A stretch of DNA of 64,000 nt from Nitrospirota bacterium (GTDB taxonomy: Bacteria; Nitrospirota; UBA9217). The DNA is taken from contig CAVTRN010000002.1 of NCBI GenBank assembly GCA_963737155.1, positions 2,688,001-2,752,000 of the forward strand. The letters run 5' to 3'. Both the position numbers and the translations under genes were made by a program. Under the pieces are notes generated by a model. The model was given only the letters and a program-made list of their open reading frames with translations. It was not told where the DNA came from and searched no databases. Positions 7,336 to 37,379 of this stretch are shown one piece after another (positions within the stretch are counted from its first letter, which is position 1; the number at the start of each line of letters is the position of its first letter).

Positions 7336-8349
7336 TCAGGGCACTTTCGCGGTGTTTACTTCTTCACGGAGCAGGATCTCCACTGATGCCTTCTCGCGAA
7401 GGTTCTTGGCATACAGATCTGCCTCCTGCCGAACTTTTTCCTGGGCCAAATGTTTTCGAATCTGTTCCTTGACTGCATCATAAGCGAGGATTGTCTCCGG
7501 CTTCCGGTCGAACACCTTGAACACGTTAAACCCGTAACTCGTCTCGATAATATCGCTCGTTTCTCCCGTCTTCAGTCTGAACACGGCGTTCTCGAGCTGC
7601 TTGTCCAGCTGCCCGATCCTGATATATCCCAAGTCGCCGCCGCTGGTTCTGGTCGGACCATCGGACTGTTCCCTGGCCAAGGCAGAAAAATCCTGGCCCT
7701 TTTTCAGGTTCTTCAGGACCAGTTCGGCCTTTTGCTTCGCTTCCTTTTTTCTTAGATCATCCCATTTCGGATCAACCTGGATCAGGATATGGCTGACCCG
7801 TGCCTGGAGCGGCTGTTTGAAGAGGTCTAAGTGGCTCTCGTAATTGCCGACCATTTCGGCGTCGGTCACGGTGACCTTCGCGCCGAATTTCCGGTCCACA
7901 TACTGTTGCAGGGCGCTGTTCCTTTCCAGCTGCAGCCGCAGCGCTTCCTCGGACATGTTCCTCTTTCCGAGTTCATTGTTATACTCTGCCTCAGTCGGGA
8001 ACTGCCGCTTGAGCGCCGCGAGCTCGCCGGCGACCGCGCTCTCATCAGGCTTGATGCCAGCTTTGCGGCTGTCCTGATAGAGGACCTCACGCCGGATCAT
8101 GCTTTCCAGCACCTGCGCCCGGATGGAGGCAACCTGGCTTCCGGTAAGCGGTTTTCCCTGGCCCAGAAGGGATTTCTGGATCAGAAAGACTTCCTTATCG
8201 AAATCAGCCCGCTCTATGGGAACGCCGTTCACGACCGCAACACGATCGTTGGCTGGTTCCGCTTTCTTTCCTTCGCTCCAGGCCGGCGAGGCAATGGCGA
8301 TGCATGCAGCGAACAGCACTACTGTTTTGAAACCAAAAATCCTGGTCAT
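7336..8349 (-). CDS. SurA/PrsA-like parvulin (PpiC-type) peptidyl-prolyl isomerase
   Basis: Signal peptide; VAVVNGVPI; ARVSHILI; DFSALAREQSD..SGGDLG; SDIIETSYGF. Confidence 0.92.
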   Translation of the reverse strand: MTRIFGFKTVVLFAACIAIASPAWSEGKKAEPANDRVAVVNGVPIERADFDKEVFLIQKSLLGQGKPLTGSQVASIRAQVLESMIRREVLYQDSRKAGIKPDESAVAGELAALKRQFPTEAEYNNELGKRNMSEEALRLQLERNSALQQYVDRKFGAKVTVTDAEMVGNYESHLDLFKQPLQARVSHILIQVDPKWDDLRKKEAKQKAELVLKNLKKGQDFSALAREQSDGPTRTSGGDLGYIRIGQLDKQLENAVFRLKTGETSDIIETSYGFNVFKVFDRKPETILAYDAVKEQIRKHLAQEKVRQEADLYAKNLREKASVEILLREEVNTAKVP

Positions 8350-8363
8350 GTTAAAAAACCCCC

Positions 8364-9044
8364 TTATTTTTTATTGATCTTCAGCTGCTCAATCTCATCT
8401 TGATACTGACTAATTAGCTGTTCAAGTTCCACCTTCCGCACTTGCGTCAGCGGCTCCTTCTCAAGGAGAGCCGAGCCGATCCCCTTGTCCTTGTATTTTT
8501 TGACGAGTTCCTGTGCGATCAGTGCGAGCTCGGCATTGTGCGCGGAACAGGAGCCCAGTTCCCGAGTCGTCCGTTTCAGGTCCACCTGAAGGACTTGTTT
8601 TTCTCCGGCTGCTTGTTTTAGTTCCCGGTCCAAGTCCTTGTTGATCTGCTGCGCTTTCTCGAGGTCTTGTCTGGTTTTGGCAGTTTTTTCATTGGCCGCA
8701 TTGTTCCGTGCTTCCAGTTTTTGAACCTGCTCGGTAAGTATTCCCACCCGGCCACGCAAATCCGCTGTTTTCTTCCTCTCGCCTTGGATAGCAGCCTGCA
8801 GTTTGTTCACATCGTCAGTGCATTTTTGCTCCAGCGAGCCAGTGGCCTCGGCCCTTTCCTCGGTCATAGTCTTCTGAATAAAAGCAATCCTCTTTTCCTT
8901 CTCCCTGATCTTGTCCTGGCAGCTCTTTTGCTCCTTTGTGACCTCCCTTGTGACCTGCATATGTCCTACACCCAGCCCGATGCACAGTCCGGCAACCAGC
9001 CCAACAGCGGGAAGTATGAGCCTTTGTAACAGTGGGAAACTCAT
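8364..9044 (-). CDS. Membrane-anchored coiled-coil protein
   Basis: N-terminal hydrophobic segment, long heptad-rich region, C-terminal EPLTQVRKVELE; follows the putative porin in the operon. Confidence 0.75.
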   Translation of the reverse strand: MSFPLLQRLILPAVGLVAGLCIGLGVGHMQVTREVTKEQKSCQDKIREKEKRIAFIQKTMTEERAEATGSLEQKCTDDVNKLQAAIQGERKKTADLRGRVGILTEQVQKLEARNNAANEKTAKTRQDLEKAQQINKDLDRELKQAAGEKQVLQVDLKRTTRELGSCSAHNAELALIAQELVKKYKDKGIGSALLEKEPLTQVRKVELEQLISQYQDEIEQLKINKK

Positions 9045-9107
9045 GATTTCTCCAGATCTGATCCAGCCCGTCCAGAACCACAGGACTGAAAGTATCTTCT
9101 GCGATCG

Positions 9108-10751
9108 CTAGAATCTTGCATTTATATCCACCTGCAGTACATCGATCGCCAGTGGTGGACCGCTGATTGCATCCGCCGACAACCATCGAAGCGTAAGCCA
9201 GTTATTCTTTAACAACCCGACATCGGTTCCCACAATCCAGCCTTGAGCATTGGTGCCTCCAAGATGGAAATCGGAGTCTGTATAGCCGTCAACAACGGCG
9301 TCCGATTCCAGGTGCTTTTGGTAAAAATATACCTTCCACTGGCCGGAATCATACGTGTTCGGATACCCTACGGACACACCATATTGGTAGCCCTCGACTT
9401 GTTTGTTGGGATTGGGATTGCCCGTCCTTGCGGCAACACGGGCCTCATTAAAGCCAAAATTTTTCACATAATCGCCGAGGAAAACGACATGAACGGGATC
9501 CCAGAAACCGATATCGAGAGTGCCCGTGGCGTCCAATTCCTGGAATTCCGAAGCGAGGGCCGTCGTAACGACGGATGGGTTCGAGCTGATATTGAACAGA
9601 GTGTTCCCCTTCTGTTGAAACTGGGGTGCGGTCCAGTCCGTGGCGCCGGGATTATTGGGATTATTGAGCACCCCGGTGATATTCTTGAAATCATAGAAGG
9701 CCGAACCGATCTTAATAGCAACGCTTTTTTGGCTTTCCCGTTCAAGCCCCAACTGCCCGGCCACAAGCCATTTCTGTTCCGAGCTGAAATTATACTGCTG
9801 CAATGGAAAAGCACCGGTAGTGATATAGGGCGTCAACGATTCCGCGTTGGACGTGGGCATCCTCGCATGCAGGGCAAAGCCATCGAAATTCAAATCCTTG
9901 GCCCACACAAGATCGGTTGAAAAAAAAGGATTAGGCATCCTCCCCCCATAAAGAGCGAATGAGTTCGACGGGTGCCACTTAAGATATGCAAGATTGATCA
10001 CGACAGAGTCAGGGCTCATAGAGTTCCCTATGGTCACATTATTCGAGACGGGGTTTGTCGTACTGCCAGTGGACAGGCGAACGACCGCATCCAGCTGGTC
10101 ATTTATCATCGCCTCCGCGCCGAAACGTGCCCGGTATTTGAATAGGTCCTGGTCTACCGTCGTATTCATGAGTTCACTCGGGTCTGACGGCTGCGCAAAA
10201 GAGGCATTATTTTTGCCAAAGCGATCTTGCTCATACCGCAGGCGGATGTCCCCGCCAAAGCGGATCCGCTTTTCTTTCTCCTGCATGGCCCAGTTCACTT
10301 TCCAGATCTCCCTGTACATCTCGTCCATAACGTCGTTTCTGACCTCATCCTCGACGGCACTTCCAACCTCCTGGATCACCCGAGCTGTTGTTTTCGCAAT
10401 CAGCTCCCTGTCATGTGCCTCCTGAGCGCTGACGGTCCCCGTCCCTTCGGTACTAACGGTCGACGCCGCAGCAAGAGCAGGTGCGGCTTCGTTGTACTGG
10501 TTAGCATTCCCCTGCTTCGCCTGTCCAACGGGTTCCTTGCGGGTCTGCCAGTAAGCCGTAGCAATATCACTCTGGGACGGTGTGCTCTCATGCATGATGA
10601 TCACGGGTTTGGGAGCCGATGCGCAGCCAACAACTATCGACATCAAGAGCGCCGCAATGCCACAAGTGATATGTCTCCCCATCCACGTCAGGAGTACTGA
10701 AGCCGGAAGTTGAATGTTTGCTTTCATTGATATGTGCCTGGTTCCTCTCAT
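9108..10751 (-). CDS. Putative porin (outer-membrane beta-barrel) with lipobox-like N-terminus
   Basis: IRFGGDIRLRYE, DSDFHLGGTNAQGW, C-terminal DVLQVDINARF ending in Phe; VVGC lipobox-like motif. Confidence 0.85.
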   Translation of the reverse strand: MRGTRHISMKANIQLPASVLLTWMGRHITCGIAALLMSIVVGCASAPKPVIIMHESTPSQSDIATAYWQTRKEPVGQAKQGNANQYNEAAPALAAASTVSTEGTGTVSAQEAHDRELIAKTTARVIQEVGSAVEDEVRNDVMDEMYREIWKVNWAMQEKEKRIRFGGDIRLRYEQDRFGKNNASFAQPSDPSELMNTTVDQDLFKYRARFGAEAMINDQLDAVVRLSTGSTTNPVSNNVTIGNSMSPDSVVINLAYLKWHPSNSFALYGGRMPNPFFSTDLVWAKDLNFDGFALHARMPTSNAESLTPYITTGAFPLQQYNFSSEQKWLVAGQLGLERESQKSVAIKIGSAFYDFKNITGVLNNPNNPGATDWTAPQFQQKGNTLFNISSNPSVVTTALASEFQELDATGTLDIGFWDPVHVVFLGDYVKNFGFNEARVAARTGNPNPNKQVEGYQYGVSVGYPNTYDSGQWKVYFYQKHLESDAVVDGYTDSDFHLGGTNAQGWIVGTDVGLLKNNWLTLRWLSADAISGPPLAIDVLQVDINARF

Positions 10752-10784
10752 GGCAATAGTATCGGGCCGTTCATTCTTGATTTA

Positions 10785-11483
10785 TCAGCCCTGAGAAATA
10801 ATTTTGACGTCCATCGTCCGCGGCATGCTTTCCGGCGGTGGTTCACTGATCCGGAGAGAACGGAGGGCCTGGATGACCGCGTCATCCATTCTGTTGTTCC
10901 CCGAAGACCCGATTATCCGGTAATCAATGACTGTGCCATCAATGTCCACTTTCACCCTAACGATAGCCTGAAGCTTGCCCTTGGGGATTCCACCTTCCTC
11001 ATCCAGTTGCTTCGTGACCTTCTTTCTGATTTCCGTCACCACGATCTGGGTATAGCCGGCGAATTTGGTCAGAAGAGAGAGCTTCCCGAACCCGGATTCC
11101 GCGGCAATAATGCTCCTCCCACCCTTCTTCCCGACCAGACCGAAGTTGTCACTGCCTGCTCCGCCCTCGGAATCAACACCCAGATTTTCTCCAGCCGGCG
11201 TGTTGTCCTTGCTGTCGGTGTTCTGGTTCTGCGCCTCGTTCTTCACTCCCGGATCGATAATGTCCTCCTTCTTCGGGACCTCTTTGATCTCCTCGGGCGG
11301 CTTTTCCTTTACCTCGACTATAGGCGGAGGCTTGAGCAACGTGACAGTTGCCATGGTGTTCTTCCTGTGCGGCTCATCCTCGGACAGGACCGTTTTGACA
11401 ATATACACGCCCCCCGAGATCAGAAAGATCGTCACCGCGATCAGAACCCAGGGAACGGATTTTTTTGCTTGTTTGCCAGACAT
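10785..11483 (-). CDS. TonB-family energy transducer (TonB/TolA C-terminal domain)
   Basis: Single TM, Pro/Glu/Lys-rich linker KPPPIVEVKEKPPEE, C-terminal GSSGNNRMDDAVIQAL. Confidence 0.85.
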   Translation of the reverse strand: MSGKQAKKSVPWVLIAVTIFLISGGVYIVKTVLSEDEPHRKNTMATVTLLKPPPIVEVKEKPPEEIKEVPKKEDIIDPGVKNEAQNQNTDSKDNTPAGENLGVDSEGGAGSDNFGLVGKKGGRSIIAAESGFGKLSLLTKFAGYTQIVVTEIRKKVTKQLDEEGGIPKGKLQAIVRVKVDIDGTVIDYRIIGSSGNNRMDDAVIQALRSLRISEPPPESMPRTMDVKIISQG

Positions 11484-11579
11484 GCGCTGTTGCTCCGACT
11501 AATGCAAATAAAAAGTTGACGCTTAATTTAGTGCGATTCGACACTTCCCGGTTTTATTCCTGGTGTGGCGCATGTCCCT

Positions 11580-11996
11580 TCACTTCACCAGCTTCTGCGT
11601 CACCAGACCGAGTTGGGTGATCTCAAGACGTTGCAGAATATCCAGCACCTCAATGACGCTCTTGTAAGATATCTTCTCATCGCCCCGTATGACCACCGGG
11701 AAGTTGGGATCCGCGCCCTTGTACTGTCGGAGCCTGCTCTCCAATTCGGGCAAAGTCACGGGAAAACTGTCGAGATAGATCGTTCCGTCCCCGGTGATGG
11801 TGATCGCCTTGGTAGTGGCTTTGACCTTGCTCGCGGCCGCACTCGCCTTGGGAAGGTTGACGCTGATCCCCTGTACGGACGCCGTCACGACGATCATGAA
11901 CACCAAGAGGAGATTCCAGGCCAGATCCAGCATGGGAACCACGTTGATCTCGTCATACACATCATGGTCGTCATAGGGGTTCTTTCCATGGCGCAT
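11580..11996 (-). CDS. exbD: Biopolymer transporter ExbD
   Basis: EINVVPMLDL..LLLVFMI, VNLPKAS, VVIRGD motifs. Confidence 0.93.
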   Translation of the reverse strand: MRHGKNPYDDHDVYDEINVVPMLDLAWNLLLVFMIVVTASVQGISVNLPKASAAASKVKATTKAITITGDGTIYLDSFPVTLPELESRLRQYKGADPNFPVVIRGDEKISYKSVIEVLDILQRLEITQLGLVTQKLVK

Positions 11997-24658: not shown

Positions 24659-26242
24659 TCAAAACACGGCCCTCAGTTTAAAATAGAACCTCAGGTCTCT
24701 GCTCCTTGTCTGGTCCGTCGCGTCCATGGCCTTGGCTTCGTCAAACTCGTATTCCAGGTTCCTCGCCATCGTGCCGCGTATTCCCAACCCCGTCCCTTCA
24801 AGCTTGATAGCGCTCTCCGTTCCGGGGAGCGGATCCAGAACAGTCAACTCGGCCATGTCGTAGAAGAGAAAGGGGGTCACCTGAAGTCCCCCGGAGTGTT
24901 CGAGAGGGTTTGGGAAAGATATTTCCACTGTCGTATGCATGGCTTCATCGCCCGAAGCCTCACTTTCCTTGTATCCTCGCACGCTTTCCATGCCTCCCGC
25001 GATATACTGCTCATTACTGATGAGCGGTTGCTGGGATGCCTGCCCATCCACTTTCACGAAGAGGTTCATCCCGTGGGGCAGCTTTTGGGTGCGCTGTATG
25101 GCCGCTGTCGTGTAGGCATAGTCCGCCGTCCCTTTGTAACGTTTGAGCTCAAACTCGCTCTCCTGTGCCACCAAGCCGCGGAAGGATATGTTCTCTCCAA
25201 GGTTAAACACGGTCATCCCTCCCCATTCATCCGACAGGGAAGCGCTATACGTGAATGAAAATGGCAAATAAGAGATGGGTGTATGCGTTGTCTGGCCACT
25301 TACCGTTGTGTAACCTACGGCTTGATCAAATTGCTTGTAATCTATGCCAAAGGTAAAATTATGCGTATAAAGATGGTACTCCGGCAGCAGTGTCACGTAG
25401 CGGGTCCCGAATATCTTCCCCTTACCTATGACCGTGAATCCCTCGCCGAATGCCGTAGCGCTGTCCGACCAGATGCCGTAAAGGGCCCACTGGTCGTTCT
25501 TCTCCCACGGAGCGGGAAGAACGTAAGAAACATTCACTACCTCCACCTGGCTTGTGTCTTGGGGCGACGTCTGGTACTGAAAAGTCAGGGAATGCTCCTT
25601 TTGCCAGAGATTGTCGTAGTGAATCACTGCGTTCAGACGTAATGGAGTCGTGTCATAGGTGTTCCTGTTATTCAGTTCCAGATACCCATGCAGGGGAAGC
25701 TGGTCTTGCACCTTGAGCTCCACATCGATGGTCCCCATTTCCCTGGCTGGCGACATCACAGGCTCGACCTTGAAGTCCTGACTCCTGTTCAACTGGCTGA
25801 TCTCCTTCTGGACCTGGGGCAAATAGAGGATCATGCCAGGCGTTAGGGACGGCAGGTCTCTCAGCACTTTTTCCATTGTGAAATACCGGTTGCCAGTGAT
25901 CCTCACCCTGCCGATCCGGCTCTCTATCACCTGAAGTTTGACGATACCGTCCTCCAAAGTCTGTGCAGGTATGTTCACGATCACGGCCGGATACCCGGCC
26001 TCGTGGTATTTTTTTTCCAGCGAGTCCCGGGCCTTTTCCACGTCTTTCACCGTTCTATCAGGGCCGGTGAAAAGGATTACGGCGGCACGCACCTGATCAT
26101 CGGTAAACAGGCTGTTGCCGGTTACCTCAAAGGCCTTGATCTCGAAGCCTGGTTTTTTGGTTTCCTGGGCAGAACAAAGCCCGGCCATGAACACCGCAAA
26201 CAGGACCGTCAGTAAGAAGAGCCGCCAACACCTCGTGTTCAC
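24659..26242 (-). CDS. ShlB/FhaC/HecB-family TpsB transporter
   Basis: POTRA FEVTGNS..YHEAGY..VNIPAQ; conserved GGMESVRGY; terminal Phe; directly upstream of the TpsA. Confidence 0.93.
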   Translation of the reverse strand: MNTRCWRLFLLTVLFAVFMAGLCSAQETKKPGFEIKAFEVTGNSLFTDDQVRAAVILFTGPDRTVKDVEKARDSLEKKYHEAGYPAVIVNIPAQTLEDGIVKLQVIESRIGRVRITGNRYFTMEKVLRDLPSLTPGMILYLPQVQKEISQLNRSQDFKVEPVMSPAREMGTIDVELKVQDQLPLHGYLELNNRNTYDTTPLRLNAVIHYDNLWQKEHSLTFQYQTSPQDTSQVEVVNVSYVLPAPWEKNDQWALYGIWSDSATAFGEGFTVIGKGKIFGTRYVTLLPEYHLYTHNFTFGIDYKQFDQAVGYTTVSGQTTHTPISYLPFSFTYSASLSDEWGGMTVFNLGENISFRGLVAQESEFELKRYKGTADYAYTTAAIQRTQKLPHGMNLFVKVDGQASQQPLISNEQYIAGGMESVRGYKESEASGDEAMHTTVEISFPNPLEHSGGLQVTPFLFYDMAELTVLDPLPGTESAIKLEGTGLGIRGTMARNLEYEFDEAKAMDATDQTRSRDLRFYFKLRAVF

Positions 26243-27992: not shown

Positions 27993-28026
27993 GCAAAAGA
28001 ATGCGGGGCTCTTAACAGAGCCCCGC
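27993..28026 (-). terminator. Intrinsic terminator after the PstS-like gene
   Basis: Perfect 10-bp stem GCGGGGCTCT/AGAGCCCCGC followed on the minus strand by ATTCTTTT. Confidence 0.7.
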
Positions 28027-28071: not shown

Positions 28072-29367
28072 TTAGTTGCAGTTGCTGTTCTGATAATTGG
28101 TATTAATTGACCAGCCACTGAAGTTCGATTGCTTGACATACTGCATATGGCACTGAGCTGCCCAGTATATATTGTTTGCTTCCACTGTACTGGGCTGGTC
28201 TGAGTATGTGCAAATGTCTAAATACAAGGGATTCGTGGAATTGGCTAACGACACATACACGTTCTCAATCGTCATGAAAGGATTGGTCCATGTTTGAGTC
28301 AACGGCGTGTACGGAATTTGGTTGTCAAGGCTGAGGCGGGTCGTGTTGCCATAATTGGCAAGGTTCTGGTCCACATCGGCAAAACCGACTGCGCCCGTAC
28401 CTGACCAAGTGCCGCTGCCGTTGACGCAGTTCATCATATCAGCTGATCCGTCGTTGAACCAAGCATGATAACCGGTTCCACCCGAAATCTGGGTAGTAAG
28501 CAATGTCTGGGGCTCCATGAAAGCAGCCAAGGTTGCGAGGGTACCTGAACCTGCAGCGCGGAAACAGGCATTAATAGGCATGGCGGGCATGCTAAGCACT
28601 GTTGTTCCAGTTCCGCCAGATACAATCCCTTGCAGATCAGACCAGTCCTTGACAGCACCAGAGAAGATCATCTTCGCGCTTGCTGTGCTGAGGTTGTTGA
28701 GCACTGTCCCAGCCGACGTGAGTACGGAGTTGTTTACGTAGAACGAGAAGGGGATCGCGAGCGGACGGCAGAGGTCGACTACGTTTGAGCTGACCGTAAC
28801 CGGGTCAAGAAGAAAATTGTGAACTTCAGATGCTCCGCCAAGAGGTCCGTTCAATGTGCCGGTGGTATGCTGTGTGAAGTCTTGCAATAAAACGTCAGAA
28901 GCGCCGATAGTTACGGGCACACACAGCGCTGCAGAGGTGCATACGCCGCCGGAGCAAGAGCTGGGATCGGCCATAGGACGATCGTAAGGACTCGAACAGC
29001 TCGTGTTAGAAGCAAAGGGGTTGGTCGTGTTGCCGTCGATCGCGAGCGGGCCATCATAGGAAGCCTTGGAGGAAACGCGGAAGTTGACCGTGGTTCCGCC
29101 ACAGTTTGCCTGCTGGACGAAGTTCTTATTGTCCGTGGTTGTACCTGAAACGCCATTGGTGCAGCCCGCTGCTTGGAGGTAGTTCGGGGCTTCGCGCTTC
29201 CAGTATGTAAACTGGGCTGAAGATCCCCAGACATTTATGTCCGCTGTGGGCATGGTCGGCGAGCTGGTTCCCGTTTGGTATATTGTTGTTCCTGCCGATG
29301 CTGCTCCCACGAATGCCAGGAGGGAGACGCCGGCTATAGCTGAGGCGAAGATATTCTTGATCTTCAT
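28072..29367 (-). CDS. Secreted Cys-rich PstS/DING-like (phosphate-binding-protein fold) protein
   Basis: Signal peptide ..AASA; motifs GSSA, IGASD, FRAAGSGT, GAVGFAD parallel PstS GASD/HRSDGSGT/IGYVE; 12 Cys. Confidence 0.65.
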   Translation of the reverse strand: MKIKNIFASAIAGVSLLAFVGAASAGTTIYQTGTSSPTMPTADINVWGSSAQFTYWKREAPNYLQAAGCTNGVSGTTTDNKNFVQQANCGGTTVNFRVSSKASYDGPLAIDGNTTNPFASNTSCSSPYDRPMADPSSCSGGVCTSAALCVPVTIGASDVLLQDFTQHTTGTLNGPLGGASEVHNFLLDPVTVSSNVVDLCRPLAIPFSFYVNNSVLTSAGTVLNNLSTASAKMIFSGAVKDWSDLQGIVSGGTGTTVLSMPAMPINACFRAAGSGTLATLAAFMEPQTLLTTQISGGTGYHAWFNDGSADMMNCVNGSGTWSGTGAVGFADVDQNLANYGNTTRLSLDNQIPYTPLTQTWTNPFMTIENVYVSLANSTNPLYLDICTYSDQPSTVEANNIYWAAQCHMQYVKQSNFSGWSINTNYQNSNCN

Positions 29368-29448
29368 GTAATTATTCTCCTTGTGATGTAGGGCTCCTTA
29401 AGGAGCCTCAAATGTGAAAGGTTAAAGCACTGAATCGGTATCAGACCA

Positions 29449-30240
29449 TTAGGCAACCATTTTCCTGCGCAGGCCGATAAGACCAAGCAGACCGGAGCCG
29501 AAGAGGTAAACAGCAGCCGGAATTGGCGTGGGGGACGGCGTGCCTGCCAAGACTGTTACGAGTTGACCACTGGAGTTGACCAAGGTTTCGAGCGAGGCGA
29601 CAGCCGTGCCCTTGATGTCTGTAGTACTGCCATCCGGAGTGGCACCGTAGTAATAGAGCATCTGGTTCACATAGCCGGTGGTTGAAAGCGCAGCAAGATT
29701 CATTTCAGCAGTGTTACCGGGAACAGTCTGGTCCAGATAAGTGCCCATCGTGCCGACTGCGTACCCGGCTCCATTCATGTTTGTCCAATAGGAACTCGCG
29801 TTGCTCTGCAGCGATGACGCATTGTTGCCAACGGCAATCGAATTGTAATACGGCAGCACCGTTGACGCGTTGAGTTGGAATCCTGACCAGAATTGACCGG
29901 GAGCGGCAGTAGCGCCGGTTGTTGGACCGCTGGTCCAAGCAGCGCCATTCCCGCTATTAAGGGTCGAGGACATGATGAAGTAGCCAACATTCGCATTGCT
30001 CCAGCTGGTAGCCCCTGCTTGGCTTAAGCTGACGGTGTCCGTGGTGTCGTTCAGGTACGCGCCGCTGCCTGGGGCGGTCAGGCTTGAAAAATTACCCAAG
30101 TCGGTGGCATACTCCGTGCCGGAACCGGTTCCGCTGTATACTACGCGGATCAAATCTCCTTCGCTAAAAGCGGCCATGGCTTTTCCGCTCACACCGAGCA
30201 TGAGCAGGGCAACCATCATGAGCATCATGATCTTTTTCAT
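29449..30240 (-). CDS. VPLPA-CTERM (PEP-CTERM class) surface protein
   Basis: Signal peptide ..KAMA; C-terminal PTPIPAAVYLFGSGLLGLIGLRRK sorting signal; low-charge Ser/Thr/Gly/Asn-rich body. Confidence 0.9.
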   Translation of the reverse strand: MKKIMMLMMVALLMLGVSGKAMAAFSEGDLIRVVYSGTGSGTEYATDLGNFSSLTAPGSGAYLNDTTDTVSLSQAGATSWSNANVGYFIMSSTLNSGNGAAWTSGPTTGATAAPGQFWSGFQLNASTVLPYYNSIAVGNNASSLQSNASSYWTNMNGAGYAVGTMGTYLDQTVPGNTAEMNLAALSTTGYVNQMLYYYGATPDGSTTDIKGTAVASLETLVNSSGQLVTVLAGTPSPTPIPAAVYLFGSGLLGLIGLRRKMVA

Positions 30241-30391: not shown

Positions 30392-30478
30392 CCCCTCAGG
30401 CAACCCGGCCATCCACCACTGTGGGATCCGTGGGCTTTCCGTCATCCGGTTACCCGGATTTTGGCTTTATACTGAAGG
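30392..30478 (-). ncRNA. Cyclic di-GMP-I (GEMM-I) riboswitch
   Basis: Minus strand CCTTCAG-TATAAAG-CCAAA-ATCCGG-GTAA-CCGGAT-GACGGAAAG-CCCACGGATCC...GGATGGCCGGGTTGC-CTGAGGG: P1, GNRA-capped P2, GACG(G)AAAG junction, P3; about 150 nt upstream of the CTERM gene. Confidence 0.85.
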
Positions 30479-31296: not shown

Positions 31297-31483
31297 ATCA
31301 TCAATTTTTTTCTGGTACTTTCTAACGACTCCATATAAAATATCACGATAATTCATATCGATTCGCTCTTTACACAGTCTTTCAACAAAAGAAGCTTCCG
31401 CATTTAAAGGTAAAGTCGAAATTATTTCCTCAGCGGATCTATTTGCCTGCACAATTTTCTTTTGACCGGTCCTGAGGTACGAA

Positions 31484-32710
31484 CTATTGTGTCTTCCTGT
31501 TAAGGTTGGCCAGGTAATTCGCTGTAAATATATACTCCAAGAAATATATTTTGTTATCCCTATGAAGCGCTGAAGATTGTTTGTTAATGTATTCCTGCAG
31601 CTCATCAAGGAAATTATTTTCATCGACCCCGTCATCTAGTTTTATTGGCGGTGAAACTACAAGCGGATAGTCAAGGAATTCCCGGCCCGTATCTATGGCC
31701 AGTCTTACGTCCCATGTCCCTTCATTCGGCAGCACGGTCATGACGATTCCTTTTTCGCTCACTTCTTTCGAGATTAGTATTCCATTGGCCAAAGCAATCC
31801 CGATAGGATACGATTCTTCCTTCTGAACTTCCATTCTGATCGTGACTGGCGTTTTCCCATCGGAGATGGCGATTGCCGGCTCCTGCGCAGATCTGTCACC
31901 GTCTCTCCGCTTGAACAGAGCAGCAAATGTTTTCAGCCCTTTCCGCCCCTCGAATTTTTTGAACCGCTGCAGTACACTGGTTTCATCATAGATGATAGAT
32001 GCCGTCTCCTCTTTATGAATCTTCTGGTCAGTGCCTGCCGGTGACGTCATCCCTGCTTGGGCAGATAGAGTATTAGTCATATTGTTTGAATCCGACACAA
32101 TTGTTTGAGTCACCTTCGGGGCTGTTTCGCCCACTTCTATTGCGGAAGATGCAACTGAGGGCCCATTTTCAGATCCGTTCACGGATCCATCCCCGGTGTT
32201 GTCCGAAGACGAAGTGGAATCCGAATCAAGCTGCGAAGGCTGAGGAGCCATACTAGTGGCATTTGCAGATACAGTATAGATGCCTCCCGCCGTATCAGTC
32301 TTTGTTTGGAAGTTCAAAACGATCTGAAGGATGCCATTTGCAACTGGCCGACTTATGCTGGCTACCAGGTTACCTGGCGAATCAGAATTTACCTGCGATA
32401 GATTTCCTCCTGTTATCTGCATGGTGGGATTCTCTAGCAGCGAGGAATCGTAGGCAATCTCGATGTCCAAGGACTGCACGCCATTAACATTTTCTCCCAC
32501 TAAAACAAAACTTCCATTACCATTCGGTAGGATGCTCATATTCACAGGATCGGCGAAGGAAAATGCCGGGCAGTTCATGGCAAACAGCAAACCTACTAAA
32601 CACAATTTTATCAATCTGCGCCGTAAGACTTTCTTCTCGACAGCGCACGGATTTAACGCGGTACTCGCAAAACAGTCAAATACGTACTTCTTTGAAAAAT
32701 AAGTATTCAT
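31484..32710 (-). CDS. Secreted protein with cohesin-like N-terminal domain
   Basis: Hydrophobic signal; GENVNGVQSLDIEIAYDSSLLENP cohesin-like pattern; Ser/Thr linker; C-terminal QEPAIAISDGKT..YIFTANYL. True start may lie downstream of 32710. Confidence 0.65.
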   Translation of the reverse strand: MNTYFSKKYVFDCFASTALNPCAVEKKVLRRRLIKLCLVGLLFAMNCPAFSFADPVNMSILPNGNGSFVLVGENVNGVQSLDIEIAYDSSLLENPTMQITGGNLSQVNSDSPGNLVASISRPVANGILQIVLNFQTKTDTAGGIYTVSANATSMAPQPSQLDSDSTSSSDNTGDGSVNGSENGPSVASSAIEVGETAPKVTQTIVSDSNNMTNTLSAQAGMTSPAGTDQKIHKEETASIIYDETSVLQRFKKFEGRKGLKTFAALFKRRDGDRSAQEPAIAISDGKTPVTIRMEVQKEESYPIGIALANGILISKEVSEKGIVMTVLPNEGTWDVRLAIDTGREFLDYPLVVSPPIKLDDGVDENNFLDELQEYINKQSSALHRDNKIYFLEYIFTANYLANLNRKTQ

Positions 32711-33013
32711 ATGCTCACCTATGCAAAATCATAAGCAAAGATAGTTAATATCACTCTGTCCAAAATAGGTTTTATCTTGGACAGCATTTTCATGACTGGC
32801 CAGCAGCCCTACAAACAAGATTATTCCAAAACGTGAGAAAAGCAGCTATGAGCGGCCTTTCGAAAAGCCTCTGATAGGATAATCGGAGTAGTCTTCGAAT
32901 TCTGGCGTCTTGATAGCATATAGCGCCCGCGACGTCGGGACTTACGGCTTTTCCACGGTCATCGTTAGGACCTTAAGGACACCCTTAGGAAAACCAAGGG
33001 ATGGACATATAAC

Positions 33014-33069
33014 TTTTTAACTGCATATTGTTACAGCTCTATGAAAAATAAGTGACAATTTCATGAATT
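33014..33069 (-). promoter_or_regulatory. Pho-box-like array + -10 upstream of the cohesin-like gene
   Basis: AATTCAT-gaaa-TTGTCAC-ttat-TTTTCAT-agag-CTGTAAC, 10 bp, TAAAAA. Confidence 0.7.
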
Positions 33070-33169
33070 TTTAATCTCATCGCTCATGAGTCCGTTACAC
33101 CATTTTCAAGATAGCACCTGAAAACACATCCCGGAATAATGTTATCGGCCTGGTGAACACGCGGCTTGA

Positions 33170-33600
33170 GTAGATGGCTTTTTTTCTCTATCTCTACTGT
33201 TTGTTGTCAAAGTCCAACGTGAAGTCGATGCGTTCATGCCACCGAAGCTGACAATGATTGAGAGTCGATGATAAGCCTCACTTGGCCGTCTATCCTTCTG
33301 CGGAGTCCGCAATGCTCCGAAGCCAGTCCACGACGGAGTCCGGGGTGGGTTTCTCGTCGTGTTCCACAAGTTTTAAAGGGGGCCTTCCTGAATGAGTTTC
33401 CGGATGTCCAGATGGTGACCTTCACTTGTTGCAGAAGAATCAAACATCTACGAATGCAGACGCGCATTGCTCCCGACTTTATTGTCGGGACGAGGCACGT
33501 TGTTGTCAGCCAACGCGCGCAGGCCAAACACGGTGATTGAATAACCGAGTCGGACCGCCCCCTGGGCAAGGATAGTGTGTAAATCCCTCACCTTTTTTGT
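33170..33600 (-). pseudogene. Decayed IS1380-like transposase fragment
   Basis: Interrupted frames give GLRALADNNVPRP, LLKLVEHDEKPTPDSVVDWLRSIA and RIDFTLDFD, resembling IS1380 P.PDT..DWLR and TLD.D motifs; several stops. Confidence 0.5.
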
Positions 33601-33630
33601 ATCGTGAAACGAAAAAAAACGTTTAGCTCA

Positions 33631-34671
33631 TCATGATCCTACCTTGTTGGTTATTGCATTTGCTTGGTGGAGAATCATGAAAATAAACAACAGAAAAGGG
33701 AACACGTATTGACCGACAACGAGGAGTGTCAAATCCACCCTGCTGACGGCCGTAAAATTGAAGTAAGCTATCAAGACATTATCAATTCTGTGAAAAAGAT
33801 GGATAGCAAAAAGGAGCATCAGCCCGGCAATGAGTCCCTTGATTTTCATTGCCCATGACGTTGAACGAATGGCGAGAACAAGTGATGTAAAGGTAACAAT
33901 GCTGAAGGTTTCATAGTAGATAACGGTATCATGCGCCAGGCCTACGCGGTGATTAAATAGAGAAAAGGCCAGGACCATGAACCAATCCAAAAACCGGATG
34001 TACCAATGGTGGACTTTCATCCATACAAGAAACACACATCCTGATATGAGCACAAAGCGGGCAAAAAAAACCGCCGCTTTCATGGGCATGTTCTGTTTCG
34101 ACCCTTCCCTATCGATCCATTTCAGCCACAGGACGCAAACCAAAATTACCAAAAACACGGTGAATACCTGTCCCAGATACACATGAAACACATTAAATAA
34201 CCTCCGGTCGTATCGGCTGACCGTGAATGTAAGTGTAAGCCGGACTAGATTGCCAAGATACAATGCGGGGATGCCTATTGCAAGGCCTGCTGCCTTCTGG
34301 CGCACTGATGCAGGCTGGAAGATGACAAAACTGAGGAAGAGGCCTGTCGTGAAAAGTGGTGTGCACTCCGGGATTATCTTGAACGCCAATTTCCCTTCCG
34401 ATACTATGTCGTTATTAGCAGAAACAGGAATTCCAAACGCATTAAGGACCATGCCCAGGGTTGCGGCAATGTTCTCGTTGATTGGTTGCGTGAATGACGG
34501 CGGCAGTGCTTGAATGATGGCGTAGAATGCAATACAGAAAATGGTGAAAGCTGCGGCAATGCGAAAACGGCCCAATCGGACTATGTCCGATGTAAAGGGT
34601 CTGAATGCAGTTCCCTGTTCGGCGCCTGCCTGTTTTTTATCGCGTTGATATTTTGATTTATGTTTTGCCAT
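33631..34671 (-). CDS. Exosortase H-like transpeptidase with C-terminal membrane extension
   Basis: Catalytic Cys-Arg-His contexts IIPECTP, GNLVRL, FHVYLGQV; multi-TM; adjacent to an IPTL-CTERM-like substrate. Confidence 0.82.
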   Translation of the reverse strand: MAKHKSKYQRDKKQAGAEQGTAFRPFTSDIVRLGRFRIAAAFTIFCIAFYAIIQALPPSFTQPINENIAATLGMVLNAFGIPVSANNDIVSEGKLAFKIIPECTPLFTTGLFLSFVIFQPASVRQKAAGLAIGIPALYLGNLVRLTLTFTVSRYDRRLFNVFHVYLGQVFTVFLVILVCVLWLKWIDREGSKQNMPMKAAVFFARFVLISGCVFLVWMKVHHWYIRFLDWFMVLAFSLFNHRVGLAHDTVIYYETFSIVTFTSLVLAIRSTSWAMKIKGLIAGLMLLFAIHLFHRIDNVLIAYFNFTAVSRVDLTLLVVGQYVFPFLLFIFMILHQANAITNKVGS

Positions 34672-34700
34672 GCTTTACTGTATCAGCAGCTTGTTCATCT

Positions 34701-37379
34701 TCATTGCTTCCTGCGTTTCCGCGATATATAGCCTCCCAATACTGCCGCTGTCGCTATTATCCCCCATATCCCGAGAGCCGGGGCCGCCTCCGCCTGGGCG
34801 AAGGTTGCCACGATTGCGTGGACTTCCGTAACGCTTGCGATTGTGTACGTGTAACTGCCGGTGCCCGTCGGTACAGCGTTTACGGCCGTACCATTGTCAG
34901 TCAGCCCCTCCAAAGTGAAGCTGATGGCCGGGTTGATAGTGAAGGTAACAGGTGAGCTGTATTCAATGACTGCGTTCGCCGGTGTTATGCTGCCATTGTT
35001 GCCGCTGCTGACGGAAGCGGTAACATCATAAGTGTTTAAAGCGAAGGTTGCGACTACCGTATGAGCAGCGGTGATATTTGTAATAGTGTAATTGCCGCTT
35101 ATGACGTCGGCGGTGACATTTGTGCCGTTATCAATCAGGGCGGCCAGGTGGTAACCGACGGCCGGAGTGATGGTTAAAACTGCATTGCCACCGGAAACGA
35201 CCATAGCAGTGCCCGGGGAAATGGCTCCGCCAATGCTATTTGTGACTGACGATGTTATACTAAATGTCTGGAGTATCGTGAGAGTTACTGTTGCAGTTTG
35301 CGTAATTCCGCCACCAATGCCGGTAACGGTAACGGGGAATGTGCCCGCAACGGACGATGCAACGGCATTGATCGTTAGAATGGAGCTGCCGGAACCCGGA
35401 GCCGAGATTGAGGCTGGGCTGAAAGACGCCGTCGCGCCCGACGGAAGTCCAGATGCAGAAAGCGTAACAGTATTGCTAAAATTGCCTGAGGTGGTCGAAC
35501 TTATGGTAGTTACGACCATTGAGCCCTGAGGAACAGACACAAAGACGGGCGAGACCGATAGGGCGAAGGCCGGGGTCCAGTTCGTCACAAGTGAGTTCGC
35601 GTCCACCGAGCCAAGTCCCGTAGCCTGGTCAAAGCCTGTTGTACAGGAATAGCCTGTCACACCAGGTACACTATTTCCGCCCGAGGTGATGTCATGGAAT
35701 ACCGAAACACCTCCTGCGCCGTATTGCGAATTGCCCAGCTGGTAAAATCGGGGATTGGCGTTTCCCTGTCGCTGTCCTGTATTCTGCACGATAAGCGCCA
35801 TGAGACCGGCAAAGGACGGTGAGGAAGCCGACGTTCCGCCTATGGCATAGAGTGCGCCCTGTGTCTCGACAAGATAAGCATCATGGACAGCCGAGCTCAG
35901 ACAAACGTCTGGTACGTCGCGCTTGCCGTCAACGGGGACGCCGGGTGAAATCTGCCAGGAAGGTTTGGCGTATAACGTTGAAGCACCTCCTCCCGTCGCC
36001 CACAGTCCGGAGCCGCCCGCCACATCGCCGCTTTCGTTCCAGGCCGTTTCGGGTATATAACTGATCGCCGAGGTGTATCCGCTCCCCCCATTTTTTGTAT
36101 TCCAATAGCTGCCGGACCCTTCATTGAATTCCGTCCCTCCCACCGCTACATTGTACGGTGTGGAAGCGAGACCATTGACCGCGCGATTTGAGCCCGTAGT
36201 GTCGGTGGGGGAATCGCAGTCCGCTGCACCGGCGTCGCCGGAAGAAACAAAGGAGGTAATGCCCTGCGAGGCGGCCTGTCGCCAAAGATTGTTGTAAAAA
36301 GTGTTTTCTGCTGATCCCAGATCCGATTCGCATGAGCCGAAACTTGTACTCATGACTGCGGCCAGATTGTTGTTCACTATATACTGGGCCGACAGGTCCA
36401 CGCCGTCCGTAGCGCCGGTAGATTTCGAAGTGACAAACAGAATCGCGGCATTTATTGCCACTGCTCCCGACCATTCGACATCAAGATCAGCTTCATTGTC
36501 TTCTGTCCCGCCGAGATCGCCGGGATCAGTTCCGTTCACAATCACCTGGGGAGGGTTTGCAGGCAGCCCCATGATGCTGCGGAAGGTCGTCCAGTCGGAA
36601 GTGGATGGGTGGGTGCGGCCCACAATCGCAATGCTTTGGCCACTGCCATTTATTCCTGAGCCATAAAGAGGATTAAGGTCATAGATGATCGCGAAATCAC
36701 TAGGTGATAAATAATGGATCGAGCCTGCGGTGTAATACGGAAGAATACTATCCTGAGTTGCCGAGCTCATGGCATGGTGCATCATCTTGCGCGGAAAGTT
36801 GTGCAGGGAGACAATACCCGCTACTAAATCCGAAAGCCCCCGCGGTATCGACGGGTCCTGAGCGTTCGCATGGTACATGTGTCCGTTGACATAATAGTTG
36901 TGTATTCGCGTATGAAATGCGCGCTCAACGTCGGCCACCGTTCCGGAGAAATTGACCCACGCGCCGCTTTTAGCAACTTCATTTATCATGAATCCATGGG
37001 ATGTGAGCCAGTCGGTTATAGAATGAATATCCTCGGACAAGGGCCCGAATCGTTTGTTAAATTCCTCTGGCGAAAGCCAGCGATGATATTTAGGGGAGGC
37101 CGGATTGTGCAACTCAGCCAGAATCTTGTTCAATTCGGACTGTTTCATAGCATTCAACTGTAACGTGAGAATCATACGCTCCATTGGCATTGATGCATCT
37201 GTTTCTCCCCTGTCGAATTCAGGACGGGCGAGCGGATGCACGTTTCCATGAAGGATTATGGCATCCCTATCATTGATGACACGAGGCGGATGAGCGGATG
37301 CATTTGACGCGGCAAATAGGATTGCCGAGCTCGCGAAAATTATACATGCGAAGAGAAAGCGTTTAACTTCGTATTTCAT
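34701..37379 (-). CDS. S53 (sedolisin/kumamolisin) protease with pro-domain, Ig-like repeats and IPTL-CTERM-like tail
   Basis: Pro-domain YHRWLSPEEF; EADLDVEW, SSGDAG, GKRDVPDV, GGTSASSP; C-terminal APALGIWG + TM + RKRRK. Confidence 0.92.
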   Translation of the reverse strand: MKYEVKRFLFACIIFASSAILFAASNASAHPPRVINDRDAIILHGNVHPLARPEFDRGETDASMPMERMILTLQLNAMKQSELNKILAELHNPASPKYHRWLSPEEFNKRFGPLSEDIHSITDWLTSHGFMINEVAKSGAWVNFSGTVADVERAFHTRIHNYYVNGHMYHANAQDPSIPRGLSDLVAGIVSLHNFPRKMMHHAMSSATQDSILPYYTAGSIHYLSPSDFAIIYDLNPLYGSGINGSGQSIAIVGRTHPSTSDWTTFRSIMGLPANPPQVIVNGTDPGDLGGTEDNEADLDVEWSGAVAINAAILFVTSKSTGATDGVDLSAQYIVNNNLAAVMSTSFGSCESDLGSAENTFYNNLWRQAASQGITSFVSSGDAGAADCDSPTDTTGSNRAVNGLASTPYNVAVGGTEFNEGSGSYWNTKNGGSGYTSAISYIPETAWNESGDVAGGSGLWATGGGASTLYAKPSWQISPGVPVDGKRDVPDVCLSSAVHDAYLVETQGALYAIGGTSASSPSFAGLMALIVQNTGQRQGNANPRFYQLGNSQYGAGGVSVFHDITSGGNSVPGVTGYSCTTGFDQATGLGSVDANSLVTNWTPAFALSVSPVFVSVPQGSMVVTTISSTTSGNFSNTVTLSASGLPSGATASFSPASISAPGSGSSILTINAVASSVAGTFPVTVTGIGGGITQTATVTLTILQTFSITSSVTNSIGGAISPGTAMVVSGGNAVLTITPAVGYHLAALIDNGTNVTADVISGNYTITNITAAHTVVATFALNTYDVTASVSSGNNGSITPANAVIEYSSPVTFTINPAISFTLEGLTDNGTAVNAVPTGTGSYTYTIASVTEVHAIVATFAQAEAAPALGIWGIIATAAVLGGYISRKRRKQ

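Follow-up and report, generated by a model that had tools for sequence, protein, structure and literature searches.

A conserved PdtA-type cell-envelope gene cluster of Nitrospirota with a c-di-GMP-I riboswitch and a predicted phosphate-binding protein

We analyzed a window of 64,000 nucleotides (nt) from a Nitrospirota bacterium (assembly GCA_963737155.1, contig CAVTRN010000002.1, positions 2,688,001 to 2,752,000), in which a 30-kb cell-envelope block, 7336-37379, holds 14 genes, all on the minus strand (Table 1). The block encodes a two-partner secretion (TPS) pair, TpsB and the giant exoprotein TpsA; an ExbB/ExbD-type motor with a TonB/TolA-like protein; a Porin_5 outer-membrane protein; CC226, a coiled-coil-like protein; an FKBP-like and a SurA-like peptidyl-prolyl isomerase (PPIase); a PstS-like protein, hereafter the binder; CTERM263, a secreted protein with a PEP-CTERM-type tail; a secreted protein of 408 amino acids (aa); an XrtH-like exosortase; and an S53 protease. 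We explain it best, with moderate confidence, as a modular, conserved and patchily distributed envelope system of the PdtA type that carries a phosphate-binder cassette switched by cyclic di-GMP (c-di-GMP). That the block, riboswitch cassette included, is one functional unit we hold with high confidence. By the gene content and order printed in the portions of PMC2729926 and PMC4971064 at hand, the closest known system is the Pseudomonas aeruginosa pdtA/pdtB-exbB2D2-tonB4 cluster, of which the block is a new variant. A preliminary description, made from the letters and reading frames, had set out the same 14 genes at the same coordinates and on the same strand; it held neither the c-di-GMP-I riboswitch nor the pstSCAB-phoU operon (41818-46618).

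Conservation of the block was examined in the 64 genomes of the window's class, all in one family (genomes carry G numbers, loci from wider scans L numbers). Strong Porin_5 matches occur in seven of them (G000, G028, G045, G006, G005, G062 and G036). Strong TpsB matches are found in the same seven, together with a weak match of 27% identity in G011, and full-length PstS-like matches likewise, G035 adding only the first 50 residues of such a gene where its contig ends. Each of the seven carriers holds CTERM263, PstS-like, FKBP, TpsB/TpsA, ExbB, ExbD, TonB, Porin_5, CC226 and PPIase genes on one contig. Thus, the association of CTERM and PstS-like genes with the core, whose lack the preliminary description had named as a refutation, was borne out in these genomes, and the pair is also kept in rearranged loci.

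Three scans, anchored on TpsB, DUF2341-ExbB and XrtH, covered 185,579 species genomes. Short peptide patterns served to seed the loci, which were then confirmed by tblastn with the window proteins (E<=1e-5); the counts are therefore too low for distant homologs, namely those of CC226, the PPIase and CTERM263, and for everything in Pseudomonadota. Metagenome bins, their contigs short, make up many of the records. The co-occurrence counts also overstate their statistical weight, since the genomes are related and hence not independent. PstS-like and FKBP-like genes lie upstream in 18 of the 22 TpsB-anchored loci, with the PstS-like gene beside TpsB; the four misses are loci in which TpsA precedes TpsB (L006, L011) or contigs that begin at TpsB (L015, L020). 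A CTERM263 homolog was found by tblastn in 12 of the 22, L016, L019 and L021 also have a PEP-CTERM-tailed gene at that place, and L009 has one with another kind of tail. The ExbB-anchored set comprises 70 loci, and counts were restricted to contigs reaching far enough: ExbD is present in 64 of 64, TonB in 60 of 62, Porin_5 in 51 of 55, CC226 in 43 of 53, and TpsA or TpsB upstream in 64 of 65. By record title, carriers belong to Nitrospirota, many orders of Thermodesulfobacteriota, an NC10 bin, Burkholderiales, Ca. Tenderia, an Acetobacteraceae bin and other Pseudomonadota bins. Records of two cultured organisms are among them: Desulfosarcina alkanivorans PL12 (L016/G069), with the riboswitch, the binder, the TPS pair and Porin_5 just beyond, and Desulfosarcina cetonica JCM 12296, with the binder, the TPS pair and Porin_5 3.4 kb past the end of the locus.

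Across some 90 loci overall, in Nitrospirota, Thermodesulfobacteriota and some Pseudomonadota, content is constant and gene order variable. The CTERM263/PstS-like pair precedes FKBP-TpsB in the window and in L077, follows the PPIase in L068, L071, L076 and L102, lies antisense after CC226 in L060 and L062, and stands between CC226 and FKBP-TpsA in L082. Shuffled order with retained content is a classic signature of functional linkage. The gaps in the window, 917 nt between the PstS-like and FKBP-like genes and 1243 and 920 nt further up, as well as the hairpin terminator that the CTERM/PstS-like unit has of its own, could be taken to mean that the PstS-like, CTERM, exosortase and protease genes are unrelated neighbors of a TPS/TonB operon. 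The co-occurrence counts already contradict this (seven of seven carriers against none of 57 non-carriers, the 50-residue fragment in G035 apart), the pair survives rearrangement, and 20 of 22 XrtH loci lie in genomes with the system or Porin_5, so we regard mere neighborhood as barely conceivable.

About 200 nt upstream of CTERM263 are conserved like coding sequence in a DNA alignment of eight class genomes. The 5' leader of this gene holds a c-di-GMP-I aptamer that ends 155 nt from the start codon and has the conserved core of GEMM-I riboswitches; no other Rfam family attains its gathering score within the 64-kb window. In the model alignment, the equivalent of Vibrio-reference position 20 is G and that of position 47 is A; in 12 of 12 aptamers the position-20 equivalent (G11) does not vary, nor does a GACGGAA stretch with the A47 equivalent. 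Position A47 is another ligand contact in c-di-GMP-I riboswitches. A G at position 20 marks sensors of c-di-GMP and an A marks sensors of cyclic GMP-AMP (cGAMP), according to the part of PMC6140456 at hand. A cGAMP (GEMM-Ib) reading was ruled out by the G present in all 12 aptamers.

The riboswitch is located upstream of the homologous CTERM gene in 14 of 19 assessable loci (Rfam, gathering score): directly upstream in 13 (L004, L005, L012, L013, L017, L024, L016, L060, L062, L068, L071, L076 and L082) and 1.2 kb upstream in L007. L014 was left out, as its contig starts inside the CTERM gene. All six rearranged loci tested retain the riboswitch, and for some relatives' copies the highest-scoring model of the clan is the GGC or the UAU variant. 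L005 has a second c-di-GMP-I riboswitch (695-791), 5.6 kb upstream of the one heading the CTERM gene. Downstream, a hairpin (28026-28003) starts 46 nt past the stop codon of the PstS-like gene, and in G005 the PstS-like gene is likewise followed by a G+C hairpin and a T-run. From riboswitch to hairpin, with CTERM263 and the PstS-like gene between them, the stretch thus has the look of a single two-gene unit. The predicted minimum-free-energy structure of the leader joins the 3' strand of P1 (CCUGAGGGG) to CUCAGG, which lies at the Shine-Dalgarno site, and L082 has CCUGAU and AUCAGG at the pairing stretches, a change on both sides. This predicted pairing may point to a translational ON switch; other loci have different expression platforms.

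The first gene of the unit encodes CTERM263, whose family alignment has P239, P241, G248, G250, L251, R258 and R259 invariant. Its tail, TPIPAAVYLFGSGLLGLIGLRRK, is PEP-CTERM-like, with the pattern VP-x-P-A...GSGLLGL...RRK, and its Atlas look-alikes carry PEP-CTERM. The preliminary description had called it a VPLPA-CTERM protein. The PEP-CTERM-like tail stands; the narrower label is weaker, with no NCBIfam model matching at E<=0.01 and only a sub-threshold VPDSG-CTERM match in Pfam.

The second gene encodes a predicted PstS-fold phosphate-binding protein, a paralog of PstS. Taken alone, the protein barely reaches the Pfam cut-off (27.5 against 27) and scores 17.3 against 206.6 for the NCBIfam PstS model, and a single-sequence search of the PDB gave no match. 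Profile and fold searches made the label of the preliminary description, 'PstS-like', firm. The profile of the family (14 homologs, 27-54% identity to the window protein) matches PstS1 (4exl) at 2e-18, with DING/HPBP weakly matched. An AlphaFold (AF2) model (predicted local distance difference test, pLDDT, 82.6; predicted template modeling score, pTM, 0.81) has the two-lobe PstS fold: among the matches listed by Foldseek, 41 of 42 are phosphate-binding proteins, the remaining one being a LysR-type regulatory domain, with 4exl at 3.5e-12 and template modeling (TM) scores of up to 0.82 normalized to the target. Residues G48-x-S50-A51, S103, G155..D158 and C268-x-R270-(H)-A-G-S274-G275-T276 are invariant or nearly so in the 14 sequences. 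The R270..T276 motif aligns with RaAGSG of PstS1, and we take the invariant residues to match the phosphate-ligand positions of E. coli PstS. The invariance of these motifs argues that ligand binding is retained. The low NCBIfam PstS score indicates that the binder is not the Pst transporter's own binding protein, and the pst operon, 12 kb from the PstS-like gene, encodes its own PstS (equivalog, 394.8 against 339).

The binder has a Sec signal and conserved cysteines, and neither a lipobox nor a CTERM tail. Its N-terminus reads ADINVWGSSAQ, and those of its relatives DINxYGAS; the mature N-terminus of DING proteins is DINGGGATL (PMC2242829). A DING/LAP identity was rejected, since the binder lacks that N-terminus and PstS proteins are closer in fold; PfluDING ranks below them in Foldseek (3e-6, TM 0.38-0.45).

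Beyond the block, 4.4 kb away on the plus strand, lies a canonical pstSCAB-phoU operon, with PhoU scoring 216.8 against 130. Pst genes recur elsewhere: PhoU, PstB and PstA are encoded ~17 kb beyond XrtH in G045, PstC and PstA after CC226 in L073, and L101 has a PstS-like gene beside TpsB. The phosphate link of the preliminary description is thus plausible, given the PstS fold with invariant ligand motifs, the adjoining pstSCAB-phoU and, in Pseudomonas, DING/LAP genes beside a giant hemagglutinin. A role in phosphate acquisition we put forward tentatively, as possible and somewhat short of probable. The only regulatory element found at the locus is the c-di-GMP riboswitch. Between the block and the pst operon, divergent from the S53 gene (38363-46618, plus strand, pst included), lie genes for a hybrid response-regulator/histidine kinase, a second kinase and two single-domain response regulators; homologs of the hybrid kinase stand beside XrtH in G006/L126, L121 and L071.

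The motor A subunit consists of a signal peptide, a DUF2341-LamG head of ~340 residues, a glycine-rich linker and an ExbB/TolQ channel; we read the head as periplasmic. DUF2341 is listed among appendages of unknown function on such motors in the available part of a 2025 survey (PMC12505986). NCBIfam scores are higher for TolQ (113.4) and TolR (85.4) than for ExbB (80.1) and ExbD (66.9 bits), all far below the cut-offs. The TonB/TolA-like protein has an N-terminal membrane anchor, a Pro/Lys/Glu-rich linker and a TonB C-terminal domain. CC226 has no family match in Pfam/NCBIfam scans, and its N-terminal hydrophobic stretch is read as a membrane anchor. Family matches upheld the labels that the preliminary description had given to TpsB, TpsA-DUF3739, DUF2341-LamG-ExbB, ExbD, the TonB C-terminal domain, the SurA-like parvulin and the S53 protease, and its putative porin is indeed a Porin_5 protein.

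An AF2 model of Porin_5 from an 18-sequence alignment has a 16-strand barrel (163-546) preceded by a long helix (109-155) and no plug; its low-confidence N-terminal stretch is probably flexible. Foldseek places OmpM1 of Veillonella parvula (8byt) first (E 4e-15, TM 0.73 normalized to the target), followed by general porins, AlgE and OprO, and a Porin_5 profile has no meaningful match among PDB sequences. Porin_5 is thus modeled as a plug-less 16-strand barrel on a helical stalk, not as a TonB-gated receptor architecture. Like OmpM1, it has a 16-strand barrel after a long helix; unlike OmpM-type attachment porins, which join barrel, coiled-coil stalk and surface-layer homology (SLH) domain, it has no SLH domain that Pfam finds, and sequence identity to OmpM1 is only 16%. 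Nitrospirota members (and likewise those of Smithella) have a lipobox (VVGC in the window protein) followed by a conserved P-V-T-I-K-H-E. Desulfobacterota and Pseudomonadota members carry, instead of these, one to three N-terminal ALIxLLKxKGVISxEEA repeats (e.g. L078:12982-14679, L099:12845-14494). P-V-T-I-K-H-E was considered as a TonB box; the stretch is absent from the Desulfobacterota and Pseudomonadota members, and we make no such claim.

The motor shares with TonB-ExbB-ExbD and Tol-Pal systems a channel of the MotA/ExbB/TolQ family, an ExbD/TolR protein and a TonB C-terminal domain. It differs from TonB-dependent uptake in having no 22-strand receptor with a plug nearby, and from Tol-Pal in that scores for TolQ, TolR and TolA fall far short of the model cut-offs and Pfam/NCBIfam scans of the 14 cluster proteins detect neither TolB nor Pal families; the DUF2341-LamG head and the stalked porin partner set it apart from both. 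As the preliminary description had stated, the window has no classical TonB-dependent receptor (no Plug domain found), no extracytoplasmic function (ECF) sigma factor (no Sigma70_r2) and no type II secretion system (no secretin). The nearest Plug-domain match is 580 kb from the window, and four secretins lie elsewhere in the genome. Two Plug-domain matches with identical scores and 762-aa frames were seen at G000:C1:1265189 and G000:C2:2107241, which suggests a segment duplicated between contigs.

These traits bear on a reading of the block as an adhesion device or envelope tether without a phosphate role. In it, a Tol-like motor and an OmpM-like porin with its stalk would anchor a c-di-GMP-controlled adhesin, holding the outer membrane to the wall where secretion takes place, and the PstS-fold protein would have been recruited to accompany the PEP-CTERM protein in a matrix or structural role. 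The higher TolQ/TolR scores and an outer-membrane attachment porin as best fold would suit such a tether, as would the want of a Pho-box-like site in the search described below. In the available part of PMC6366702, c-di-GMP riboswitches typically control adhesion and biofilm genes. However, the phosphate-ligand motifs are invariant in 14 sequences of only 27-54% identity, Pst genes recur near the system in unrelated loci, no TolB or Pal accompanies the motor, and the Pseudomonas relative is regulated by inorganic phosphate (Pi) in the portions of the reports cited. We consider the tether unlikely, though a serious contender.

The XrtH-like exosortase scores best with TIGR04177, the exosortase H model, 0.2 bits under its cut-off, and is about twice as long as that model (346 aa against 158 positions). 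The 'exosortase H' of the preliminary description is thus narrowly missed as a family assignment, but the general exosortase signature TIGR04178 is well above threshold (51 against 23). E102-C103-T104, N141/R144 and H163 are invariant in nine homologs; these E-C-T, N..R and H motifs, shared with exosortase H, presumably hold the catalytic Cys, Arg and His. Another likeness to exosortase H is a neighboring substrate candidate tailed P-A-L-G-x-W-G, the S53 protease, which has a pro-kumamolisin activation domain with a sedolisin catalytic domain, as in sedolisins (S53), as well as repeat domains and a C-terminal sorting tail composed of PALGIWG, a hydrophobic stretch and RKRRK. PALGxWG resembles what we take to be the IPTLxxWG signal of XrtH.

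Strong XrtH homologs (at least 51% identity) are present in six of the 64 class genomes, each less than 8 kb from the PstS-like gene; weaker matches to this query are other exosortases. In G062 (97% complete) the query finds no XrtH, and G005 gives no information on XrtH, its contig stopping just past CTERM263. The reciprocal scan, run with an alignment of XrtH, yielded 22 loci. System genes lie within 10 kb in 12 of them, and for 16 the genome or contig is also in the TpsB or ExbB sets (by record names); of five further XrtH genomes tested, four hold Porin_5, bringing to 20 of 22 those in genomes with the system or Porin_5. The S53 gene is directly upstream of XrtH in 11 of the 22. Of the 21 loci (all but L127) searched for PALGxWG-type tails, 10 have such a tail on a protein next to XrtH, and L114 and L116 have a variant lacking W. 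The place of XrtH is not fixed: it precedes the system in the window, separates the TonB gene from the porin gene in L006/L028, is antisense and next to TpsB in L011/L106, and follows CC226 in L078. It is near only three of the 70 ExbB-anchored loci and rare near the system outside Nitrospirota and a few other lineages, and we therefore view XrtH and S53 as an add-on and not as core. The XrtH-like genes of a Desulfosarcinaceae bin (L078:15408-16259) and a Pseudomonadota bin (L106:6858-7943) share a C-terminal HIRxxHG..., preceded in L106 by a CPICG motif, and neither copy has an S53 gene beside it.

The S53 tail looks like a target of the XrtH-like exosortase. We read the protease as XrtH's own substrate because PALGxWG tails stand beside XrtH, the CTERM263 tail differs, and the genome has two other exosortases; CTERM263, by its tail, is more likely the target of another exosortase than of XrtH. 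A third, larger exosortase-family gene lies 7.4 kb before the window start (G000:C2:2680357-2680641, in a 558-aa open frame) and is a candidate sorting enzyme for the CTERM263 tail. As for the 408-aa protein, the name 'cohesin-like' draws only on the Atlas, where Cohesin (PF00963) is present in 37-50% of the members of look-alike clusters, and Pfam has no match. Homologs lie beside the system in G028, G045, G006, G062 and G035, with a partial one in G036.

The preliminary description had joined these parts into a TonB-dependent secretion by way of a non-classical channel, in which the ExbBD-TonB motor may energize Porin_5 to export or assemble the exosortase-sorted and PstS-like proteins. Its co-occurrence argument and its comparison with P. 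aeruginosa PA0690-PA0699 survived, but the motor-driven export found no support. TonB-dependent protein secretion has precedent, the motor, porin and CTERM/PstS-like pair co-occur tightly with no TonB-dependent receptor in the window, and in one genome (L006/L028) S53-XrtH is inserted between the TonB and porin genes. Yet the porin is modeled as plug-less with 16 strands, its closest solved fold is an attachment porin, and a folded binder of 43 kDa would not be expected to pass a barrel of general-porin size. Furthermore, XrtH is near so few loci, the CTERM263 tail is unlike PALGxWG, and two other exosortases and four secretins are encoded elsewhere. Such export is improbable in our judgment.

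The TPS pair consists of an Omp85-type TpsB with POTRA domains and, 19 nt away, a TpsA with an N-terminal TPS domain, as expected of two-partner secretion. The best-conserved parts of TpsA are its two ends, with identities per 100 aa of 0.70 and 0.70-0.72, against 0.39-0.68 elsewhere. A pair of this architecture with so large an exoprotein would also fit contact-dependent inhibition or toxin delivery, the motor serving toxin release or import; the C-terminus of TpsA, however, is the conserved DUF3739 (0.70-0.72 identity) and not a variable toxin tip, and where a small immunity-like gene would be expected, the motor A subunit gene comes next, 385 bp downstream of TpsA. Toxin delivery is thus very improbable.

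The second PPIase of the preliminary description falls short on its own (19.9 bits against the Pfam cut-off of 21.1), but a profile of 12 homologs matches FKBP/SlpA/SlyD chains of the PDB (1ix5 2e-9, 4dt4 1.6e-7). The profile matches in two pieces (positions 38-101 and 242-282), indicating an FKBP domain split by a large insert. An LAGC sequence suggests a lipoprotein. Regions upstream of the FKBP gene range from 308 to 1983 nt, with an inserted gene in G005, and their alignment is uninformative. In Desulfobacterales loci, long frames of 641-787 aa cover the FKBP-like region (L009:7886-9811, L010:817-3180, L012:3201-5414); two FKBP-like matches fall in one frame in L009 and L012, and other loci have two separate FKBP-like genes.

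In the portions of PMC2729926 and PMC4971064 available, P. aeruginosa has a cluster of pdtA (PA0690), phdA, pdtB, exbB2, exbD2, tonB4 and PA0696-PA0701, induced at low Pi through sigma-VreI and PhoB. The resemblance to PA0690-PA0699 noted in the preliminary description agrees with the gene list and order given there, by comparison of annotation and not of sequence. The gene lists share a giant TpsA, TpsB, ExbB, ExbD, a TonB homolog, two signal-peptide proteins and a PpiC-type PPIase. In the part of PMC2225411 at hand, the DING gene psp of P. fluorescens SBW25 lies between Hxc secretion genes and a 4083-aa hemagglutinin, and the DING-like LapA and LapB of PAO1 are PA0688 and PA0689, the two locus numbers that immediately precede pdtA; a secreted PstS-family protein directly beside a giant hemagglutinin is thus a further likeness. 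In contrast to the pdtA cluster, with its sigma-VreI/PhoB control, vreAIR genes and Hxc type II secretion, the window has no ECF sigma/anti-sigma set (no Sigma70_r2), no Hxc system (no secretin) and no E. coli-type Pho box. Here a c-di-GMP riboswitch heads the binder unit, in which the binder has a PEP-CTERM protein as its partner; an FKBP gene takes the place of phdA, XrtH and S53 are added, and TpsA comes after TpsB.

Bordetella filamentous hemagglutinin (FHA) and its transporter FhaC likewise combine a TPS-domain TpsA and a POTRA-bearing TpsB of the Omp85 type, and FHA is served by SphB1, a surface maturation protease of the subtilisin clan, and by the parvulin chaperone Par27. The protease here differs in being an exosortase-sorted S53 sedolisin, and FHA has no motor, porin or phosphate binder. 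A literature search, with most subscription journals outside its scope, found neither the riboswitch in this gene context, nor a PEP-CTERM partner of the binder, nor the OmpM-like reading of Porin_5, nor the XrtH/S53 module and the link of XrtH to a TPS/motor system.

The analysis establishes the parts, their conservation together, the riboswitch and the PstS fold with its motifs, along with a predicted porin architecture; from these we infer all functional couplings, the cellular location of the binder and its phosphate role. TpsB would secrete the 3471-aa TpsA as a fiber or adhesin, and the long unfolded passage of TpsA through the periplasm would probably be served by the SlyD-like FKBP lipoprotein and the SurA-like parvulin. 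The proton-driven ExbB/TolQ-ExbD/TolR motor would couple, through the TonB/TolA-like arm and the anchored CC226, to the stalked plug-less porin, and would do mechanical work (holding, releasing or gating) on the porin stalk or on the periplasmic DUF3739 end of TpsA, not on a plug. High c-di-GMP, as in attached life, would switch on the CTERM263 surface protein and the binder, and the cell would display the adhesin. The binder may then capture scarce phosphate at or near the surface and hand it on toward the porin and the Pst transporter encoded alongside. The exosortase-anchored S53 protease might trim TpsA or other surface proteins, much as SphB1 trims FHA. The XrtH-like exosortase, its likely S53 substrate and the possibly cohesin-like protein would form an add-on module of Nitrospirota and a few other lineages.

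Several observations weigh against this explanation. The only localization signal of the binder is Sec, with no sign of its leaving the periplasm, and it scores far below the NCBIfam PstS cut-off. Model quality for Porin_5 is moderate (pLDDT 63.7 overall, ~80 in the barrel, below 50 at the N-terminus). The SurA-like PPIase, present in 24 of 49 assessable ExbB-anchored loci, is not core, and neither is XrtH, at three of 70. Five of the 19 assessable loci (L008, L009, L018, L019 and L021) have no riboswitch at the gathering score. A search for the E. coli-type Pho box (TGTCA-N6-TGTCA, at most one mismatch) gave one match in the cluster intergenic regions and two in the whole window, none usable upstream of the cluster genes or pstS; Pi control is thus unsupported here, by a consensus that may not be that of the host phylum, whose own Pho box may differ. 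The 70 loci of the DUF2341-ExbB pattern include no Pseudomonas record; the likeness to P. aeruginosa is one of annotation. Finally, single mutants of tpsA, tpsB, the tonB homolog and PA0696 had no phenotype in zebrafish (PMC2729926, in the part available), and even this known relative is without an assigned mechanism there.

A bolder reading is a trans-envelope phosphate-fishing machine, hemophore-like for phosphate, in which a c-di-GMP-switched surface binder is held by its exosortase-anchored partner and the TpsA fiber and the TolQR/TonB-like motor, with its lectin head, pulls on the stalked plug-less porin for uptake. We think this doubtful, a long shot at best. If true, it would be TonB-type energized uptake without a TonB-dependent receptor, and would give a function to P. 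aeruginosa ExbB2-ExbD2-TonB4 and to XrtH exosortases. The pdtA-exbB2D2-tonB4 cluster was described in 2009 (PMC2729926), and its motor, TonB homolog and PA0696-PA0698 have no assigned mechanism in the available text of that report. Clusters of the PdtA kind are widespread in anaerobic Nitrospirota and Thermodesulfobacteriota, with conserved parts that are now defined: the motor, the stalked porin, the coiled-coil protein, the TPS pair and the FKBP. A phosphate-binder/PEP-CTERM cassette is tied to the cluster through a c-di-GMP riboswitch, XrtH-type exosortases gain a concrete partner system and a likely substrate, and control of such systems may thus lie with a second messenger as well as with Pi.

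Table 1. Features of the envelope block and its plus-strand neighbors (window coordinates).
Feature	Position	Strand	Basis
S53 sedolisin-type protease, 892 aa	34701..37379	-	Pfam Pro-kuma_activ 2e-34; PDB sedolisin 1nlu 4.6e-33
XrtH-like exosortase, 346 aa	33631..34671	-	TIGR04177 85.8 vs cut-off 86; TIGR04178 51 vs 23
Secreted 408-aa protein, possibly cohesin-like	31484..32710	-	Atlas look-alikes; no Pfam match
c-di-GMP-I riboswitch aptamer	30396..30475	-	RF01051, 57.4 bits vs gathering score 35
CTERM263, 263-aa secreted protein, PEP-CTERM-type tail	29449..30240	-	Family alignment; Atlas look-alikes
PstS-like protein of PstS fold, 431 aa, predicted phosphate-binding, Sec signal peptide	28072..29367	-	Profile and fold searches
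Terminator-like hairpin with T-rich tail	28003..28026	-	10 pairs, 8 of them G-C
SlyD/SlpA-type FKBP with large insert, 301 aa	26249..27154	-	Profile vs PDB
TpsB outer-membrane transporter, Omp85 family, POTRA domains	24659..26242	-	ShlB 3e-20; POTRA_2 2.8e-15
TpsA giant exoprotein, 3471 aa	14224..24639	-	PF05860 TPS domain 1.3e-21; TIGR01901 5e-21; DUF3739 7.6e-31
Motor A subunit, DUF2341 + Laminin_G_3 + MotA_ExbB, 613 aa	11997..13838	-	Pfam (PF01618); NCBIfam
ExbD/TolR-type motor B subunit	11580..11996	-	PF02472
TonB/TolA-like protein	10785..11483	-	PF13103; TIGR01352 37.3 vs 27.1
Porin_5 outer-membrane protein	9108..10751	-	Pfam 4e-126
CC226, 226 aa, N-terminal hydrophobic stretch, charged coiled-coil-like remainder	8364..9044	-	No family match
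SurA-like parvulin PPIase/chaperone, signal peptide	7336..8349	-	Pfam; NCBIfam
Phosphorelay genes and canonical pstS-pstC-pstA-pstB-phoU	38363..46618	+	Divergent neighbors, given as context of the block

A few further features were seen around the block and its relatives. Directly downstream of the SurA-like PPIase gene, a 71-aa frame (window 7067-7282, minus strand) resembles, by its translation, the N-terminus of a NusG/UpxY-type antiterminator, and short frames at 5690-6668 (minus strand) resemble pieces of a sugar-nucleotide epimerase, likewise by translation. In L021, a locus of a Desulforapulum bin in which the riboswitch was not found, a tRNA-Sec (4369-4462) precedes the long frame containing the CTERM gene by ~150 nt. 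Directly after phoU, at 46974-51317 on the plus strand, follow genes for an ArnT-like glycosyltransferase, a DegT-type aminotransferase and a GT2 glycosyltransferase, which may form a set for modification of lipid A or envelope sugars.

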